Below are positions 4,002 to 53,982 of a DNA stretch of 64,000 nucleotides, in pieces (position 1 is the first letter of the stretch; every line of letters starts with the position of its first letter). Both the position numbers and the translations under genes were made by a program. The stretch comes from Kiritimatiellia bacterium (GTDB lineage: Bacteria > Verrucomicrobiota > Kiritimatiellia > RFP12 > UBA1067), in assembly GCA_034003585.1 (NCBI GenBank), contig JAVEYH010000006.1, positions 10,177-74,176 of the forward strand. Direction: 5' to 3'. The notes beneath the pieces are model-generated. The model saw only the letters and a list, made by a program, of their open reading frames with translations. It made no database searches and was not told the DNA's origin.

Positions 4002-6416
4002 ATGAAAGTACCGGTCAGTTGGCTGAATGAGTTTGTGGACGTGGCGGATCTGTCGGTCAGGGAGTTGGCCGATAAGCTGACGTTCTCGGGTGTGGAGGTG
4101 GAGGGCATCGAAGAGGTCGGCGTGACACTCGGTGACGCCTTTGTGGTGGGCGAGGTGCTGGCCTGCGCGGCGCACGCGAACTCGGATCATCTGCATGTCT
4201 GCACGGTGTCGGACGGCGAGCGGGAGTGGCAGGTGGTGTGCGGGGCGCCCAACGCGCGCGCCGGCCTGAAGGTGGCCTTCGCGCGCATCGGCGCGGTGAT
4301 TCCCGAGGGCGGGTTCACGATCAAGAAGGCCAAGCTGCGCGGCGTGGAGTCGTTCGGCATGCTCTGCTCGGCGCGCGAGCTGAAACTCTCGGACGATCAC
4401 GCGGGCATCATGGAGCTGGATCCCGCGCTGAAGCCGGGCACCCCGCTCCGGGACGTGCTGCCGCCGCCCGAGACGGTGCTGGATCTGGAGATCACCTGGA
4501 ACCGGCCGGACTGCCTTTCGATCATCGGCATCGCCCGCGAGTTCGCCGCGCTGCTGCGGCGGCCGCTGCGCCTGCCCCCGGTGGCGTTCGCCGAGACCGG
4601 GGAGGCGGTGGAGCGTTTCGCGAAGGTGCGCGTGGAGGATCCGGGCAAGTGTCCGCGCTACACGGCGCGCGTGATGACCGGCGTCAAGGACGGGACCGCG
4701 CCGGCCTGGATGCGGCGCCGGCTGGAGCTGTGCGGCGTGCGGGCGATCAGCCTGACGGTGGATGTGACCAACTACGTGATGCTGGAGTGCGGTCAGCCGC
4801 TGCACGCGTTCGACTACCGCGCGCTGGCGGAGCGCACGGTCGTGGTGCGCCGCGCCGCGCCGGGCGAGGCGATCACCACGCTGGACGGCGTGAAGCGTTC
4901 GCTTGACCCGGACATGCTGGTGATCGCGGACGCCAACGCGCCGAGCGCGGTGGCGGGCATTATGGGCGGCGCGGGCAGCGAGATCGCGGCGGGCACCGAG
5001 CATGTGCTGCTGGAGAGCGCGCTGTTCGACCCGGCCTCGACCAAGTTCACCGCCACGCGGCTGGGGCTCGGCACCGAATCGTCGCGCCGCTTCGAGCGCG
5101 GCGTGGATCCGGAGCTGGCGGATTGGGCGAGCCGCAGGGCCGTGGCCCTGCTGGCGGAGCACGGGCAGGCGCGCGTGGCCCGAGGCGTCATTGATGTGGA
5201 CAACCGCGCGTGGAAGGCCAGCGAGGTGGCGCTGCGTTTCGCGCGGGCGCGGGAGGTGATCGGCGTGGCGCTGCCCGATGACGAAATGGTCGGGCTGCTG
5301 ACTTCGCTGGGGCTGGAGGTTCTGACGCGTGACGGGCGGGGCGCGACCTTCCGCATTCCGTCGTGGCGGCTCGACCTGACGCTGGAGGCGGACCTGATCG
5401 AAGAGATCGCGCGCCTGCACGGGCTGGACGCGATTCCGGACCGCCTGCCGGACGCGACGGCCGTTTCCACGCTGGATGAGGGGGCGTTCCATGCGCGGGC
5501 GCGCTGCCGCCAGATTTTGCTGGGCATGGGATTCAGCGAGGCGATGCACTACAGTTTTCTTTCGTCGCAGGAGTTGGATGCGTTTGACGCGCGCCGCGCG
5601 GCGTCGCGGGCGGTGCTGCCGAACCCGGTGAGCGCCGATTACGGCGTGCTGCGCGATACGCTGCTGCCGCAGCTCGCGGGGTCGCTCGGGCGCAACGCCT
5701 CGCGCCAGGTCGAGTGCGCGGCGCTGTTTGAGATGGGGCGCGTCTTTTTCAAAGGGGCGGACGGCGAGCCCGGCGAGGAAGAGCGTGTGGCGCTGGGCCT
5801 GATGGGGCCGTTCGGACGGCCGGCGGTGGATCGGCGGCGTCCGGTCGGCAACGAGGAGGCGCTGTTGTGGCTGAAAGGGGCGGTGGAGAATCTCGCGGCG
5901 GCCCTGCGCGCCGGCGGCCTGACCTTCGCGCGCGGCGAACACCCCGCGATGGAGACGGGGTGGGCGGTCGAGATCCGGCTCAACGGCGAACCGGTCGGGT
6001 GCATGGGGCTGCTGTCGGCGGCGTTGCGGCACGCGTGGCGCATGACCGCGCCGATGCCGCTGGCCGAACTGCGGTTGACGCCGTTGCTGGCCGGCGCGGG
6101 CGCGGCGGCCGGGATCCGGCCGGTGCCGCAGTATCCGGCGGTGCGGCGCGACATCGCGTTTGTGGCGGACGCCGCGGTGACGCACCGCGAGGTGGTCGAG
6201 ACCGTGCGCCGGGCGGGACCCGGGGAATTGACCGGCGTTGGGCTTTTTGATATCTTCCAATCAAAAGAAATCGGCAAGGGAAAGCGCAGTTTGGCCTATG
6301 CGCTGGAGTTCCGTTCACCAGACCGGACCCTGACGGATCAGGAGGTGAACGCGGCGTTCGCGGAGATTGTGCAGGCGTTGAAGCAGGATCTGCGCGTGGA
6401 CGTGCGGGAAGGTTGA
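4002..6416 (+). CDS. pheT: Phenylalanine--tRNA ligase beta subunit
   Basis: MKVPVSWL start, tRNA-binding OB fold (VVCGAPN, GMLCSAREL), ITWNRPDCLS, B3/4 domain, C-terminal FDX-ACB (SLAYALEFRSPDRTLTD). Confidence 0.97.
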   Translation: MKVPVSWLNEFVDVADLSVRELADKLTFSGVEVEGIEEVGVTLGDAFVVGEVLACAAHANSDHLHVCTVSDGEREWQVVCGAPNARAGLKVAFARIGAVIPEGGFTIKKAKLRGVESFGMLCSARELKLSDDHAGIMELDPALKPGTPLRDVLPPPETVLDLEITWNRPDCLSIIGIAREFAALLRRPLRLPPVAFAETGEAVERFAKVRVEDPGKCPRYTARVMTGVKDGTAPAWMRRRLELCGVRAISLTVDVTNYVMLECGQPLHAFDYRALAERTVVVRRAAPGEAITTLDGVKRSLDPDMLVIADANAPSAVAGIMGGAGSEIAAGTEHVLLESALFDPASTKFTATRLGLGTESSRRFERGVDPELADWASRRAVALLAEHGQARVARGVIDVDNRAWKASEVALRFARAREVIGVALPDDEMVGLLTSLGLEVLTRDGRGATFRIPSWRLDLTLEADLIEEIARLHGLDAIPDRLPDATAVSTLDEGAFHARARCRQILLGMGFSEAMHYSFLSSQELDAFDARRAASRAVLPNPVSADYGVLRDTLLPQLAGSLGRNASRQVECAALFEMGRVFFKGADGEPGEEERVALGLMGPFGRPAVDRRRPVGNEEALLWLKGAVENLAAALRAGGLTFARGEHPAMETGWAVEIRLNGEPVGCMGLLSAALRHAWRMTAPMPLAELRLTPLLAGAGAAAGIRPVPQYPAVRRDIAFVADAAVTHREVVETVRRAGPGELTGVGLFDIFQSKEIGKGKRSLAYALEFRSPDRTLTDQEVNAAFAEIVQALKQDLRVDVREG

Positions 6417-48497: not shown

Positions 48498-51173
48498 ATG
48501 GACAAGCATTACGACCCCAAGACCGTCGAAAACAAGTGGTACGCGTGGTGGGAGGAGACCGGCCAGTTCCACGCGGAGGCGTCGCAGGGCGGCGAACCCT
48601 ACAGTGTGGTGATCCCGCCGCCGAATGTGACGGGGATCCTGCACATGGGCCACGCGCTCAACAACACCATCCAGGATGTGCTGGTGCGCTGGCGCCGCAT
48701 GCAGGGCCGCAACACGGTCTGGATGCCGGGCACCGACCACGCGGGCATCGCCACGCAAAACGTGGTGGAGAAGGCGCTGCGCAAAGAGGGCCTCTCGCGG
48801 CGCGATCTCGGGCGCGAGAAATTTCTGGAGCGCGTGTGGGAGTGGCGCAAGGAGTACGGCGGCACCATCGTGCGCCAGCTCCGCAAGCTCGGGGCGAGCT
48901 GCGACTGGTCGCGCGAACGCTTCACCATGGACGAAGGGTTGAGCGAGGCGGTGGCCGAGGTGTTCTGCCGGCTCTACGACGAGGGCCTCATCTACCGCGG
49001 CAACTACATCGTGAACTGGTGCCCGCGCTGCCACACCGCGCTGTCGGACGAGGAGAGCGAGCATCAGGACACGGCCGGCCATCTCTGGCACATCCGCTAC
49101 CCGATTCCGGGCGGCGGCGAGGTCGTGGTGGCGACCACGCGCCCCGAGACCATGCTGGGCGACACGGCGGTGGCGGTGAACCCGGCGGATGAGCGCTATC
49201 AGGAGCTGGTCGGTAAGTCCGTGACCCTGCCGCTCCTGAACCGCGAGATCCCGGTGGTCGCGGACGAGTACGTGGACCGCGCCTTCGGCACGGGCGTCGT
49301 GAAGATCACGCCCGCGCACGACCCGAACGATTTCCAGGTGGCGCAGCGCCACAGTCTGCCGGTCCTCAACGTCATGAACGGCGACGGCACGATGAACGGG
49401 GAGGCCGGCCCGTATGCGGGCATGGACCGCTTCGCCTGCCGCAAGAAGGTGATCGCCGACCTCGAGGCCCAGGGGCTGCTGGTCAAGGCCGATCCGCATC
49501 AGCACGCGGTCGGCCACTGCTACCGCTGCGATACCGTGGTCGAGCCGCGGCTCTCCAAGCAGTGGTTCGTGCGCATGAAGCCGCTCGCCGCCCCGGCCAT
49601 CGAGGCCGTGCGCGCCGGCAAGGTCAGCTTCTTGCCGCAGCGCTGGGAAAAGACCTATTTCGAGTGGATGGAGAACATCCGCGACTGGTGCATCTCGCGC
49701 CAGATCTGGTGGGGCCACCGCATTCCGGTCTACACCTGCGCGGGCTGCGCGCACGAGTGGGCCGCGAAGAAAACCCCGGAGGCGTGCCCCCAATGCGGCG
49801 CGGCGGCGATCACGCAGGACGAGGACGTGCTCGACACCTGGTTCTCCTCGTGGCTCTGGCCCTTCAGCACCTTCGGCTGGCCCAAGGACCACCCGGACCT
49901 GAAGTTTTACTATCCGACCCGCGATCTGGCCACCGCGCCGGAGATCCTCTTCTTCTGGGTCGCGCGCATGATCATGGCCGGCTGCAAGTTCATGGGTGAG
50001 GTGCCCTTCCGCACGGTGTATCTGCACGGCACGGTGCGCGACGACAAGGGCCGCAAGATGAGCAAGAGCCTGGGCAATTCCATCGACCCGCTCGACATCA
50101 TCGAGACCTACAGCGCCGACTCGCTGCGCTTCAGCCTGATGCTCATCACCTCCACCGGTATGGACGTCTACGTCAACATGGAGAAGTTCGAGATCGGGCG
50201 CAACTTCGCGACCAAGGTCTGGAACGCCGCGCGCTTCATGAAGATGCACATGGAGAAGCTGCCCGGCACAAACTGGCGCGAAGCGGTCCGCCGCGAGCTG
50301 GCGCTCGATCCGGCACTGCTGCGCGATGACGACCGCCACATGCTCGCCACCTGCGAGAACGCCGTGCGCGCCGTGACCGGACATCTGGAGGCGTTCCGCC
50401 TGCAGGACGGCGCGCTGGCGATCTACGATTTCGTCTGGAGCCAGTTCTGCGATTGGTATCTCGAATACGCGAAGCCGGATCTGAACGGCCCGGACGAGGC
50501 GCGCCGCCGCCAGGTGCTGGCCGTGATGGCCGATGTCTTCGCCAAGGCGCTCAAGCTGCTGCACCCCTACATGCCGTTCCTCACCGAGGAGCTGTGGCAC
50601 CAGATGGGGTACGGCACGGCGGAAGAGAGCATCATGCGCGCGCCGTGGCCCGCGCCCTACACCGACGCGCAGCGCGCGGCGTGGGGACTGAGCGAGGAGG
50701 TCACCGCTTTCGTCACTGCCCGGCGCGAGCTGGTCACCGCCGGCCGCGCGCTGCGCGCCGACTACAACGTCGCGCCCTCCAAATTCCTGCACTACATCGT
50801 GCAGGCTGTGGACGAAGCCGTTGCGGAGCGTCTGAATGCCGACGCCGAGACGCTCAAGCAGCAGTTGCGTTCCGACCGCCTGGAGATCGTCGCGGGCGGC
50901 GGCGAGAAAGCCATGCCCGGCGCGCTCTGCAAGCTCGGCACGGTCTACCTGCCTCTGGACGGCGTGGTGGACGTCAAGGCCGAGGCCGCGCGCGTGAAGG
51001 CCGAGTTGGAGAAGACGCGCGGGTTCCTCAAAGGCGTGGAAGCCAAACTCGGCAACGGGGGGTTCGTGGCCAAGGCGCCCGCGGCCGTGATCGAGCAGCA
51101 GCGCGCCAAGCGGATAGAGCTGACCGAGACCGTCGCGCGGCTCGAGAAGCTGTACGCGACGTTTGGGGGATGA
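48498..51173 (+). CDS. valS: Valine--tRNA ligase
   Basis: PPPNVTGILHMGH (HIGH), DHAGIATQ, DWCISRQIWWGH, KMSKS, C-terminal coiled-coil arm. Confidence 0.98.
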   Translation: MDKHYDPKTVENKWYAWWEETGQFHAEASQGGEPYSVVIPPPNVTGILHMGHALNNTIQDVLVRWRRMQGRNTVWMPGTDHAGIATQNVVEKALRKEGLSRRDLGREKFLERVWEWRKEYGGTIVRQLRKLGASCDWSRERFTMDEGLSEAVAEVFCRLYDEGLIYRGNYIVNWCPRCHTALSDEESEHQDTAGHLWHIRYPIPGGGEVVVATTRPETMLGDTAVAVNPADERYQELVGKSVTLPLLNREIPVVADEYVDRAFGTGVVKITPAHDPNDFQVAQRHSLPVLNVMNGDGTMNGEAGPYAGMDRFACRKKVIADLEAQGLLVKADPHQHAVGHCYRCDTVVEPRLSKQWFVRMKPLAAPAIEAVRAGKVSFLPQRWEKTYFEWMENIRDWCISRQIWWGHRIPVYTCAGCAHEWAAKKTPEACPQCGAAAITQDEDVLDTWFSSWLWPFSTFGWPKDHPDLKFYYPTRDLATAPEILFFWVARMIMAGCKFMGEVPFRTVYLHGTVRDDKGRKMSKSLGNSIDPLDIIETYSADSLRFSLMLITSTGMDVYVNMEKFEIGRNFATKVWNAARFMKMHMEKLPGTNWREAVRRELALDPALLRDDDRHMLATCENAVRAVTGHLEAFRLQDGALAIYDFVWSQFCDWYLEYAKPDLNGPDEARRRQVLAVMADVFAKALKLLHPYMPFLTEELWHQMGYGTAEESIMRAPWPAPYTDAQRAAWGLSEEVTAFVTARRELVTAGRALRADYNVAPSKFLHYIVQAVDEAVAERLNADAETLKQQLRSDRLEIVAGGGEKAMPGALCKLGTVYLPLDGVVDVKAEAARVKAELEKTRGFLKGVEAKLGNGGFVAKAPAAVIEQQRAKRIELTETVARLEKLYATFGG

Positions 51174-51176
51174 GAC

Positions 51177-51794
51177 ATGGCGATCATTAGAAACGTGGTT
51201 TCCGAAGAAGGATTTAACACCGACCTCGCGCTACCGTTCGAGTTGCGTTTGGCTGATTTCCGTTTGGCCGTCCAAGACGTATATGATTTCTTCTTCGACG
51301 TAAATTCAACGTTACAAACGAAAGGGTTGCAGCGTTTGGATGACATGTTACGTCCGGCCATTATGTCAGGCGTCCTGTCGGATATGTTGACGGCAAGTCT
51401 TGCTAAGCATTCGCGTTCGTTGTGTGAGAACAAATATTTTAACGGGCATCCGGATTTAATTGTTCGAGGTGTGTATTCCGACAACGCTGTGAAGGCTGGC
51501 GATCAGGGCGTTGAAATTAAAACGACCCGCAAAAGCGGTGGTGCCGTAGATACGCATGGTGCACGGAATCAGTGGATGTGCGTGTTCGTTTATGAGGTGG
51601 ATGATCAGACTGAACCGGCAACGCAACGAAAGCCTATGACCATAACTGAAATCTACCTTGGGCATGTTGCCGTGGATGATTTTAGAAAAAATGCCCGAGG
51701 CGAATTAGGAACCCGCACCGCCACGTTGCATAAAGACGGGATTGCGAAACTCAGAGAGAGTTGGGTCTATCGACGCCCCTTGCATCGCGCTTGA
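51177..51794 (+). CDS. Putative PD-(D/E)XK Type II restriction endonuclease
   Basis: GHPDL...GVEIKTT nuclease-like motif, convergent with a DNA methyltransferase, atypical composition. Confidence 0.7.
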   Translation: MAIIRNVVSEEGFNTDLALPFELRLADFRLAVQDVYDFFFDVNSTLQTKGLQRLDDMLRPAIMSGVLSDMLTASLAKHSRSLCENKYFNGHPDLIVRGVYSDNAVKAGDQGVEIKTTRKSGGAVDTHGARNQWMCVFVYEVDDQTEPATQRKPMTITEIYLGHVAVDDFRKNARGELGTRTATLHKDGIAKLRESWVYRRPLHRA

Positions 51795-52955
51795 AAAGGG
51801 GTGCTTGTCTGTCACACAACCCGCTAGTTTCGCCACGGATTCACAGGCCAGTCTGAAATAGGCCTTATCTTTTTCGGTTCCCATGCTTTCGTACCCGACG
51901 GCTTCCGCCGCCGCAAGGGTCGATCCCGAGCCCGCGAACGTGTCGACCACGACGCCTTTTCCGAGTGGTAAAACCGCTCTGACAAGTTGGCGGAGAAAAG
52001 CTTGCGGTTTGAGGCTTGGGTGCGGCGCAAGTTCACGCTCTGTTTTGCGTGTGGGTGCTGATTCGATCACGTCGCCGAACGGTTTGTCTTTCTCCGGTCG
52101 GCGGAATCCGCCGGTTCCCCATATACGCAGATTGTCTTGGGCACGCCCTTGAAGCGGTTTACGGTAGATCAACCACGGTTCCCACATGGAGCGCGGCATG
52201 ACGCTGACATCCGAGAACTCTTCATGCGCGGCCTTGGGTCGGTCTCCACCGCGCATGGTCATCGTCAGGCGAATCAATTCGCCGCGCCGCTCGAGTCCCG
52301 CATCGGCCAATGCTTGCGATACAATGTATGACAAAAGCGGATTGGACGCCACAATCACGTTTGCCCCCGGAACCAGTTTGGGAAGAAGGGCGCGGCCCCA
52401 TCGCGTAAAGAACGCTCTGAGTTCTCGCAATTGCTCGGGTGAGAGGATTGTAAAGCGGGGGAGCGGCGCACGCTGATGTCCGTCGAACGATGGCGGAATT
52501 CGCCAGACACCGCCTTTGCCTTCCCGCAGTTTTGCGACTTGTTCTTTTGAGTATTCGAAAAGGCCGTAGGGTGGGTCAGTGACGACGGCGTGAAGGCTGT
52601 GGTTGTCTCGGCTTTCTAACCAACCAAAACAATCGGCGTGAAACAGAGTGGCGAATCGACCGACTTTTTTATGCGGGAATTCATCGGCCGCTCGAATCTT
52701 GGTCTCAACAGGCTCAGCAAATCCGGGAAATGTCGGGGCACACGAATAGAAGCCGCGCGACTCTCGAACGAAGAGGTCCGGTGTGTTGAGCCGAAGGTAG
52801 GAGCGCACGGAGGATGTGGACACGCCTCCGAGTCGTAGTCGTACGGCGTCCGATATTTCGGCGACGGAGAGCGGTCGTTGCGCTGTCTTAACGGTATCAA
52901 GAATGGCGTCGCGAACTTGGCCCGGCGCCTTTCTTGCCTTTGCGTCGTAATTCAT
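51705..52955 (-). CDS. Beta-class amino (m6A or m4C) DNA methyltransferase with an N-terminal winged-HTH-like domain
   Basis: Motif IV VTDPPY precedes HPSLKP and motif I VVDTFAGSGST (beta order); ~75-aa N-terminal extension with an HTH-wing pattern. Confidence 0.88.
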   Translation of the reverse strand: MNYDAKARKAPGQVRDAILDTVKTAQRPLSVAEISDAVRLRLGGVSTSSVRSYLRLNTPDLFVRESRGFYSCAPTFPGFAEPVETKIRAADEFPHKKVGRFATLFHADCFGWLESRDNHSLHAVVTDPPYGLFEYSKEQVAKLREGKGGVWRIPPSFDGHQRAPLPRFTILSPEQLRELRAFFTRWGRALLPKLVPGANVIVASNPLLSYIVSQALADAGLERRGELIRLTMTMRGGDRPKAAHEEFSDVSVMPRSMWEPWLIYRKPLQGRAQDNLRIWGTGGFRRPEKDKPFGDVIESAPTRKTERELAPHPSLKPQAFLRQLVRAVLPLGKGVVVDTFAGSGSTLAAAEAVGYESMGTEKDKAYFRLACESVAKLAGCVTDKHPFSSAMQGASIDPTLSEFRNPVFMQRGGAGS

Positions 52956-52962
52956 GGCGCAC

Positions 52963-52991
52963 AGGTTAGACGTCTGGACGTCTTTTGTCAA
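52963..52991 (-). promoter_or_regulatory. sigma70 promoter of the methyltransferase with two GACGTC palindromes in the spacer
   Basis: Minus strand TTGACA-aaaGACGTCcaGACGTC-TAACCT-gtgcgcc-ATG; 17-bp spacer; ATG 7 nt after the -10, no SD. Confidence 0.85.
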
Positions 52992-53043
52992 GGAAACTGC
53001 CACTCGTGATCCACACGCCGGGGCCGGTGTGGCACGGCGGTTG

Positions 53044-53982
53044 TCACAGCCGCTCGCACGCCACGGCCCGGCACAGGGCGCGCGCGCGGCGGGCGTCAAA
53101 CGCGGCGGGTGTCAGGGTTTCGGCGTTGGCGCTCCCGCACGCCAGGCCCAGCCGCACGGCTTCGGGCAGCCGTTTGCCGCGCAGCAGCGCGTGCGCGATG
53201 CCGGCGGTCGTGCAGTCGCCGCTGCCGATGGGGTTCACGCGCTCGCGGATCGCGGGCGGGGTGAAGCGCCATGCGGCACGGGGCGTCAGCAGATAGGCGG
53301 CGCGGCCGCCCTGGGTCACGAAGACGTTGGCGGCCCCCAGGTTCAGCAGGTCCCGCATGCCGCGCAGGATGCGCGCCTCCGTGTTCAGGGTCTCGCCAAG
53401 CGTGGCCGCCAGCTCCGGCACATTCAGTTTGGCCAGCAGCGGCTGTTCGAACAAAACCTGGATCAGCGCCGTGCGGTGCGAATCGATCACCACCGGGACT
53501 CCGGCGGCGCGCGCGGCGCGCGCGAACGCCACGTAAAAATCATCCGGCGCGAAGGGCGGGAGCGTGCCACTGATGGCCAGCATGGCGGCGCCGGGAATCC
53601 GTTTCAAATTGTCCGCAACGAACCGGCGCAAGGCGGCGCGGCCGGGCGCGGGCGCCTCCTCCACCAGTTCGGTCACGGTCTTGGCCTGATTGTCGAGCAG
53701 GGTGGTGCAGAGTCGCGTGGGGGCGGGCATCGCCGTCATCCCGTCACCGACCCCGCACGGTTTCAGCATCGCGGCCACCCGTGCGCCGGTCGCGCCGCCG
53801 TTGAGTCCCGCCGTTACTGCGGGGGTGCCCAGGGTGACGAGGGCCCGCGCGGTGTTGAGCGCCTTGCCTGCGGCGCTTTCGGTGACCTCTTGCGCGCGGT
53901 TCACCTCATCCGGCGTGAGCCGGTCAAACCGGAGCGTGCGCTGCAGCACAGGGGACAATCCGAGGCAGAGGACTTTTTTCAT
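53044..53982 (-). CDS. PfkB-family sugar kinase (1-phosphofructokinase/LacC-like)
   Basis: AAGKALNTARAL, TRLCTT, ISGTLP, KLNVPEL, NPIGSGDCTTAG. Confidence 0.85.
   Translation of the reverse strand: MKKVLCLGLSPVLQRTLRFDRLTPDEVNRAQEVTESAAGKALNTARALVTLGTPAVTAGLNGGATGARVAAMLKPCGVGDGMTAMPAPTRLCTTLLDNQAKTVTELVEEAPAPGRAALRRFVADNLKRIPGAAMLAISGTLPPFAPDDFYVAFARAARAAGVPVVIDSHRTALIQVLFEQPLLAKLNVPELAATLGETLNTEARILRGMRDLLNLGAANVFVTQGGRAAYLLTPRAAWRFTPPAIRERVNPIGSGDCTTAGIAHALLRGKRLPEAVRLGLACGSANAETLTPAAFDARRARALCRAVACERL

Follow-up and report, generated by a model that had tools for sequence, protein, structure and literature searches.

A GACGTC dyad that almost fills the spacer of a methyltransferase promoter was found in a stretch of 64,000 nucleotides (nt), hereafter the window, from a Kiritimatiellia bacterium (GenBank assembly GCA_034003585.1, contig JAVEYH010000006.1, positions 10,177 to 74,176 of the forward strand). 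The methyltransferase gene lies convergent to a putative restriction endonuclease gene, and its product begins with a HARE-HTH-like winged helix. The dyad is conserved in homologous loci from many phyla, and it is strictly associated with the coding sequence of the winged helix, whether this is fused to the methyltransferase or encoded as a separate gene. We favour, with some reserve, the reading that the methyltransferase represses its own promoter by means of this winged helix, with the dyad as operator.

A GACGTC dyad in the methyltransferase promoter

By direct reading, the minus strand from 52991 to 52953 is TTGACA-aaa-GACGTC-ca-GACGTC-TAACCT-gtgcgcc-ATG and contains the following features.

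52986–52991, minus strand: -35 hexamer TTGACA, read directly; TTGAC(A) is kept at equal distance in most homologous loci
52969–52985, minus strand: promoter spacer of 17 nt, almost filled by the dyad
52977–52982, minus strand: GACGTC hexamer 1, the promoter-distal half of the dyad, located by the repeat finder
52975–52976, minus strand: central dinucleotide ca of the dyad, a pyrimidine-purine (Y-R) step in homologues
52969–52974, minus strand: GACGTC hexamer 2, which abuts the -10 hexamer and is followed by TA in most loci
52963–52968, minus strand: -10 hexamer TAACCT, matching the consensus at 3/6 positions; the TAnnnT pattern is kept in homologues
52953–52955, minus strand: ATG start codon, 7 nt past the -10 hexamer and without a Shine-Dalgarno sequence; probable leaderless mRNA

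A first-pass annotation of the same sequence had reported this arrangement, and its letters proved exact on re-reading, including the -35 hexamer, the 17-nt spacer and the AGACGTC-N2-GACGTCT arms; the repeat finder gave the same arms, AGACGTC and GACGTCT, of 7 nt each with 2 nt between them. It had also described the -10 hexamer as good, a description that was not borne out, as TAACCT agrees with TATAAT at T1, A2 and T6 only and is missed by the consensus promoter scanner, which made no call at the methyltransferase promoter of the window. The -10 elements of the homologues are mostly TATAAT, TATACT or TATTAT. The ATG chosen there as the start codon was upheld. The methyltransferase open reading frame (ORF) stays open upstream of the ATG at 52955, as far as a TTG at 53099, and the alignments of the homologues begin at 52955. 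Judged from this layout, the methyltransferase transcript probably starts at or beside the ATG and would be leaderless.

The exact dyad GACGTCNNGACGTC occurs once in the 64-kb window against an expectation of 0.02 copies, and two out of 100 shuffles reach one match. Single GACGTC sites in the window number twelve. A chance origin of the dyad was rejected on the basis of these shuffles, the conservation over 76 loci and the metagenome pattern scan, both of which are given below.

One genome per GTDB species was scanned, which gave at least 589 loci; 80 of these were kept and 76 could be evaluated upstream of the start codon. The homologous loci were aligned at the start codon of the methyltransferase and the dyad was sought within 150 nt upstream. 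The exact GACGTC-N2-GACGTC dyad was found in 62 of the 76 loci. Seven others retain a single intact hexamer in this position, its partner being degenerate, and the dyad is missing from the last seven. The earlier suggestion to check whether homologous loci keep the dyad thus gave a clearly positive answer. The typical upstream sequence reads TTGACA-N3-GACGTC-NN-GACGTC-TAnnnT-N6-8-ATG. Dyad-bearing loci were observed in Kiritimatiellae, Verrucomicrobia, Planctomycetes, Nitrospirae, Chloroflexi, Acidobacteria, Chlamydiota and other phyla, as well as in Delta-, Gamma- and Betaproteobacteria.

The end of the dyad is separated from the start codon by 11-16 nt in 47 of the 62 loci, a distance that fits a leaderless mRNA. 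In 15 loci, mostly of Betaproteobacteria, the distance is 28-46 nt and a leader with a GGAG-type ribosome-binding site is present.

Among 67 dyads, the spacing between the two hexamers is always 2 nt, and the central dinucleotide forms a symmetric Y-R step (first position: T 41, C 21, G 5, A 0; second position: A 30, G 26, C 6, T 5). The TA...T pattern that follows the second hexamer has its first T in 52, its A in 59 and its last T in 54 of these dyads. Additional copies of GACGTC are not enriched around the dyad (0.27 per kb vs 0.33 per kb), and the idea of independently read GACGTC sites in its vicinity was dropped for this reason. Taken with the invariant spacing and the Y-R centre, the lack of enrichment indicates that the two hexamers act together as a single element with a constant layout.

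A few variants were noted. One hexamer is degenerate in L009, L013, L016, L042, L050, L052, L068 and L085; the second hexamer of L052 and L068 is AACGTT, itself a palindrome with the same ACGT core, and the other loci have AACGTC, GACGTT or GACGAT. In L081, a Klebsiella pneumoniae plasmid (NZ_CP040037.1), positions 4367-4402 hold the dyad together with a third GACGTC 16 bp upstream, and the start codon lies about 45 nt past the dyad, behind an AT-rich leader.

The winged helix and its association with the dyad

The methyltransferase that is read from this promoter has the following features.

51705–52955, minus strand: methyltransferase gene, 416 amino acids, a beta-class N6-adenine/N4-cytosine (N6A/N4C) amino-methyltransferase by PF01555 match and motif order
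52566–52577, minus strand: catalytic motif IV DPPY, residues 127-130, invariant in the alignment
51918–51938, minus strand: S-adenosylmethionine (SAM)-binding motif I FAGSGST, residues 340-346, invariant and placed after motif IV, as is usual in the beta class
52740–52925, minus strand: N-terminal winged helix, residues ~11-72, HARE-HTH-like by the AlphaFold2 model and the PF05066 matches of homologues

The match to PF01555 scores 53.4 bits against a cut-off of 26.7 and, together with the position of DPPY ahead of FAGSGST, it confirms the beta class to which the enzyme had been assigned. Sequence matches of the methyltransferase include CcrM, DpnA, M.MboIIA and M.RsrI. The DPPY motif is typical of N6-adenine methyltransferases.

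An N-terminal winged helix-turn-helix had likewise been proposed from the letters, and the AlphaFold2 model contains a confident winged helix at this place. Residues 11-72 are modelled as helix-strand-helix-helix-strand-strand with a predicted local distance difference test (pLDDT) score of 84-94; the model of the full-length protein has a pLDDT of 60 and, apart from the winged helix and the core, is of poor quality. Two homologous domains link the fold to PF05066 (HARE-HTH), that of L006 with 31.7 bits against a cut-off of 25.9 over positions 3-69 of 71 and that of L015 weakly, with 18 bits. The third helix, SSVRSYLRLN (residues 47-56), is the putative recognition helix and the most conserved stretch of the domain, in which S48, S49, R51, S52, Y53 and L54 are invariant. 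A recognition helix conserved to this extent fits an invariant DNA target.

The winged helix is kept in 69 of the 76 loci, 62 of them with the exact dyad and seven without it; a further seven loci have neither, and the dyad was never found without the winged helix. In the seven dyad-less loci, six from Dehalococcoidia and one from Rubrivivax, the methyltransferase is missing its first ~80 residues. In one of the Dehalococcoidia loci (L012) the methyltransferase gene begins within an operon, where its start overlaps an upstream GNAT gene; the same conserved sequence lies upstream in the remaining five.

The association also holds where the winged helix is encoded separately. In an Iamia plasmid whose nuclease is 47% identical to that of the window, a separate leaderless winged-helix ORF of ~72 codons lies directly upstream of a short methyltransferase gene, and the promoter of this ORF reads tttGACGTCgaGACGTCtactct-N7-ATG, i.e., it has the dyad. 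A Mycobacterium avium plasmid with a nuclease of 307 amino acids (35% identical) carries winged helix, methyltransferase and nuclease in tandem order, with the dyad located ~70 nt upstream of the separate winged-helix ORF.

The reverse test used the DNA pattern only, scanning metagenome contigs for TTGAC-N4-GACGTC-NN-GACGTC-TA. Out of the 121 sites found, seven end too soon downstream to judge, and an ORF matching the winged-helix profile was observed within 330 nt downstream in 111 of the 114 evaluable cases (97%). Relatives of the winged helix on other restriction-modification families were sought by a profile search of 1.84 billion representative proteins, which returned 446 matches; all of those long enough to judge continue into the same methyltransferase family and go with the same dyad. 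The same dyad is kept in a divergent, mainly alphaproteobacterial subfamily.

In two Steroidobacteraceae loci (L088 and L089, positions 4100-4340), the nuclease gene is a remnant of 49 or 79 codons, with the winged-helix methyltransferase and the dyad both intact. The methyltransferase in these loci is apparently an orphan derived from a restriction-modification system. Since the dyad persists where the nuclease gene has decayed, it belongs to the methyltransferase gene.

Two further occurrences of the motif lie outside this arrangement. On the minus strand of L186 (~1605-1630) the dyad is at the centre of a perfect palindrome of ~50 bp, cattaacagttgacaata GACGTC ta GACGTC tattgtcaactgttaatg, and is not followed by any ORF for a winged helix; the palindrome may represent two back-to-back promoters or a different element. 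In L104 (7975-8120) the promoter motif is followed by what we take, by eye, to be a cobalamin-riboswitch-like sequence and not by a methyltransferase gene, and the motif may be a captured or remnant promoter.

The operator reading and its alternatives

The reading that we prefer pictures an autoregulated Type II cassette in which the methyltransferase gene would be read from a sigma-70-type promoter with a dyad-filled spacer. Two winged helices, likely brought together as a methyltransferase dimer, would bind the dyad with one domain per hexamer and, being placed between the -35 and -10 hexamers, would keep RNA polymerase off. In a naive cell the methyltransferase gene would be on at entry and would be throttled once the protein accumulates. 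By pure inference, shutting off this promoter might also free the nuclease gene from head-on transcriptional interference, with the effect that restriction is delayed. The operator model is supported by precedent, as the fused-repressor methyltransferases of SsoII, Ecl18kI, EcoRII and MspI repress their own promoters (PMC12707154, PMC3978073).

The first-pass annotation had offered two options, singly or together, one of them an operator role for the dyad with the methyltransferase's own winged helix as its reader. This option has gained good comparative support from the fused, split and tandem forms, the absence of the dyad where the winged helix is missing, the invariant spacing and the conserved recognition helix. 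From these comparisons we infer binding and repression, along with the leaderless start and an effect on the nuclease gene.

Several points weigh against the operator reading, all the support for which is comparative. The two hexamers are 8 bp apart from centre to centre, which is short, as the sites of a helix-turn-helix dimer are usually ~10-11 bp apart. Each half-site is itself a perfect palindrome, which a winged-helix operator does not need, and another reader is possible. The -10 hexamer of the window is weak, and the N-terminus of the window's own methyltransferase falls below the HARE-HTH threshold, matching other families of winged helices only weakly (E about 0.01). As independent evidence the two losses of the domain are weak, because 5' truncations remove promoter and domain together regardless. 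Finally, the interference step may not apply in the window, as the nuclease gene there follows directly on valS and lacks its own promoter.

Whether GACGTC is also the recognition site of the cassette bears on the alternatives. Site avoidance was analysed with maximal-order Markov expectations for all 64 palindromic hexamers, both in the window and in 423 kb of pooled flanks. GACGTC occurs 10 times in the window against 13.4 expected (ratio 0.75, rank 28 of 64) and 127 times in the pooled flanks against 160 expected (ratio 0.80, rank 13 of 64), so that no specific avoidance of GACGTC was found in host DNA; the hexamer is mildly low, less so than a dozen other palindromes, and the counts do not point to a specificity. 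A stronger depletion of GACGTC under dinucleotide shuffling (12 vs 26.6) is not upheld by the higher-order model. In the Klebsiella plasmid of L081, which carries the system, six GACGTC sites occur in 4938 bp against 0.98 expected. No literature or annotation assigning a specificity to the family was found in searches covering GACGTC methylomes, Klebsiella and Col440I plasmids, and a haloarchaeal GACGTC methylation motif was set aside as unrelated, being 5-methylcytosine (m5C).

Other palindromes stood out in the same counts. CAGCTG, the PvuII site, occurs once in the window without 51100-53050 against 19.4 expected (z -7.5), and in the flanks pooled from the 80 related loci no palindromic hexamer is more strongly depleted (78 vs 160); CTCGAG, CACGTG and GAGCTC are likewise low. 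The depletion of CAGCTG may come from another restriction system or from a general bias.

The other option of the first-pass annotation was feedback by methylation. In a switch that works by methylation only, as in AhdI, LlaDII and CfrBI, GACGTC would be the cognate site, G-m6A-CGTC (m6A, N6-methyladenine) beside the -10 hexamer would lower promoter activity and the winged helix would be uninvolved. The arguments for recognition of GACGTC are indirect. Each half-site is a full 6-bp palindrome as in Type IIP systems, for which we estimate a chance of about 1 in 64 per register if the operator served a helix-turn-helix alone. DPPY is compatible with N6-adenine methylation, the modification that M.AatII places on the A of GACGTC (PMC3287169). 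The AhdI methyltransferase promoter is attenuated when the cognate site over its -10 hexamer is methylated (PMC2275141), LlaDII and CfrBI are similar (PMC12707154), and a third GACGTC is present near the dyad at variable positions in a few loci. However, independent methylation targets have no need of an invariant 2-nt spacing, a Y-R centre or a lack of enrichment of further sites; the dyad goes with the winged-helix coding sequence even when this is a separate gene; and GACGTC is not specifically avoided in the window and pooled flanks and is in surplus on the Klebsiella plasmid. We regard the methylation-only switch as improbable. A sub-case of the operator reading, which we hold as a tentative possibility, combines the two ideas: GACGTC would be cognate and the HARE-HTH-like domain would read the methylation state of the promoter sites, binding only the methylated or only the unmethylated form, so that repression would report completed self-modification and not the level of protein. 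All the evidence for the operator reading applies to it, and so does the argument from palindromic half-sites. HARE-HTH has been proposed as a reader of modified DNA from its recurrent fusion to adenine methyltransferases, with the ASXL1 domain reported to bind N6-methyladenine (6mA) DNA in sequence context (PMC6591016), and the winged helices of DpnI-type enzymes read 6mA; the 6mA-reader role of HARE-HTH is, however, disputed (PMC11037411). The avoidance analysis lends cognate-site status no support here either, and the sequence holds nothing that distinguishes methylated from unmethylated binding.

A dyad bound by a nuclease dimer or a host factor, or one with a structural or recombinational role at the border of a mobile cassette, is in our view very improbable. 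The dyad does lie near one end of the cassette, and the ~50-bp palindrome of L186 has no winged-helix gene downstream. Against this, it holds one fixed position with respect to the -35 hexamer, the -10 hexamer and the start codon, although the genomic surroundings of these dozens of loci are unrelated, it is kept where the nuclease gene has decayed, and a winged-helix ORF follows in nearly all evaluable metagenome cases.

Should the operator reading hold, self-repressing methyltransferases would extend from C5 enzymes to beta-class amino-methyltransferases, and an operator in the spacer combined with convergent, overlapping genes would be a third way to time the methyltransferase against the nuclease. 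It would also give bacterial HARE-HTH a concrete DNA target, with which the disputed reading of modified DNA becomes directly testable. The combined switch, if true, would provide the first defined target and a natural test bed for HARE-HTH, a contested reader whose carriers include the human ASXL proteins. The small enterobacterial plasmids that carry the system, such as those of 4.9 kb in Klebsiella, make it experimentally tractable.

The cassette and its comparison with known systems

The partner of the methyltransferase gene and the junction between the two genes are as follows.

51177–51794, plus strand: putative restriction endonuclease, 205 amino acids; its gene is convergent with the methyltransferase gene, a pairing found in 79 of the 80 genome loci
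51705–51794, no strand assigned: 90-bp overlap in which the methyltransferase and nuclease ORFs, being convergent, share their 3' ends

The nuclease ORF has no sequence match in Pfam, NCBIfam or PDB, and plasmid annotations list it as 'hypothetical protein'. Its alignment contains an invariant HPDL (D93)...E113-x-K115. The AlphaFold2 model has a pLDDT of 80 and a predicted template modelling score (pTM) of 0.81, with the catalytic loop at residues 91-101 below a pLDDT of 50. A Foldseek comparison of the model with PDB gave nothing significant, with weak repeated matches to EcoRV and SfiI (E 0.09 or worse, template modelling (TM) score about 0.3). We treat the product of the 205-residue ORF as a probable restriction endonuclease of the PD-(D/E)xK type, from a family not yet described. 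Among public proteins, those from Kiritimatiellae are the closest.

The 3' ends of both genes overlap in 65 of the 76 loci, by a median of 13 bp, which leaves no room for an intergenic terminator. About 34 C-terminal residues of the window's methyltransferase (~383-416, window positions 51705-51806) are unconserved and have low pLDDT, and they stretch the overlap to 90 bp in the window. The ATG of the nuclease gene (51177) is located 3 nt past the stop codon of valS (51173), with GGGGGA just upstream, and the same junction is present in the closest relative (L001). In the lineage of the window, the nuclease gene seems to be without a promoter of its own and to be read together with valS, an essential tRNA-synthetase gene. 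Nuclease genes elsewhere have their own promoter, often TTGACA-N17-TAnnnT, with very short leaders, and neither GACGTC nor the dyad was found in the nuclease promoters of related loci.

Relatives of the methyltransferase and of the nuclease number more than 8000 each and are typically 65-80% identical across phyla. The cassette is carried by mobilizable ColRNAI/Col440I-type plasmids of 4.9 kb in Klebsiella, Citrobacter and Raoultella, and by further plasmids such as Pseudomonas aeruginosa pYUI-1 and those of Ralstonia, Rhizobium and Gordonia. Phage carriage was found neither by protein search of phage records nor by the DNA pattern in viral contigs. Among Type II restriction-modification families that await characterisation, the cassette is one of the more widespread.

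A practical consequence concerns public gene calls, many of which start too far upstream and run through the promoter, giving false N-termini such as ...DVWTS.... The peptides LTKDVWTS, DVWTS, DVQTS and RRLDVY at such N-termini are the dyad translated. Examples among the methyltransferases are P0151, P0182, P0239, P0244, P0270, P0325, P0332 and P0377.

A 2025 review lists promoter methylation, dual-function methyltransferase repressors, antisense RNA and C proteins as the control modes of Type II systems (PMC12707154). By analogy, the dyad and winged helix would rather probably work like the dual-function methyltransferase repressors, possibly with promoter methylation in addition. The likeness to M.SsoII, M.Ecl18kI, M.EcoRII, M.MspI and M.ScrFIA lies in an N-terminal DNA-binding domain of ~70-80 residues (PMC12707154, PMC3978073) and in a palindromic operator, in our case a candidate one, in the enzyme's own promoter, through which autorepression in those systems ties expression to the level of methyltransferase. 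The differences are considerable. Those enzymes are C5-cytosine methyltransferases, whereas the enzyme described here is a beta-class amino-methyltransferase (DPPY, PF01555), and its DNA-binding domain is a HARE-HTH-like winged helix, with an N-terminus that matches winged-helix profiles only. The genes of SsoII-type systems are divergent with competing promoters, whereas the present ones are convergent and overlap at their 3' ends. The SsoII-type operator is a single 15-bp inverted repeat unrelated to the recognition site, whereas the present operator would consist of two complete 6-bp palindromes that fill the spacer of a mostly leaderless promoter. Amino-methyltransferase catalysis, the winged helix, the convergent genes and the proposed spacer operator thus place the cassette outside the SsoII family.

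The AhdI, LlaDII and CfrBI systems resemble the cassette in that the core promoter for the methyltransferase contains a Type IIP-like site (PMC2275141, PMC12707154), and AhdI is also convergent with only the methyltransferase promoter affected. They differ in that one site is present there, whereas the cassette has two sites at fixed spacing and a DNA-binding domain always present.

C genes are often leaderless. The C proteins they encode, such as C.PvuII, C.AhdI, C.Esp1396I and C.Kpn2I, are small regulators that bind DNA and have dyad operators in the promoters of their own genes (PMC2275141, PMC6237814), and the split forms in Iamia and M. avium resemble a C gene followed by a methyltransferase gene. 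However, C proteins have a helix-turn-helix of the Xre type, bind GACT...AGTC C-boxes located upstream of or over the -35 hexamer and usually activate the C and nuclease genes. In the present cassette the domain is a winged helix, the candidate operator lies between the -35 and -10 hexamers, where repression only would be expected, and the gene controlled would be that of the methyltransferase.

The operator hexamer is identical to the AatII/ZraI site GACGTC, and DPPY fits an m6A enzyme like M.AatII (PMC3287169). By its description, R.AatII had an unassigned fold in 2008 (PMC2441816), whereas the nuclease of the cassette has an evident D...ExK motif, and a specificity shared with AatII/ZraI is a guess. 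The HARE-HTH domains (PF05066) of RpoE/delta, ASXL proteins and restriction enzymes share with the winged helix the fold, the profile match of family members and the fusion to adenine methyltransferases (PMC6591016). The difference is the invariant 14-bp candidate target attached to the gene; no defined DNA target of any bacterial HARE-HTH was found in the literature. As far as this exact form is concerned, the earlier remark on the absence of a described switch of the kind is fair, although both of its ingredients, the fused repressor domain and promoter methylation, are known from other systems (PMC12707154, PMC2275141).

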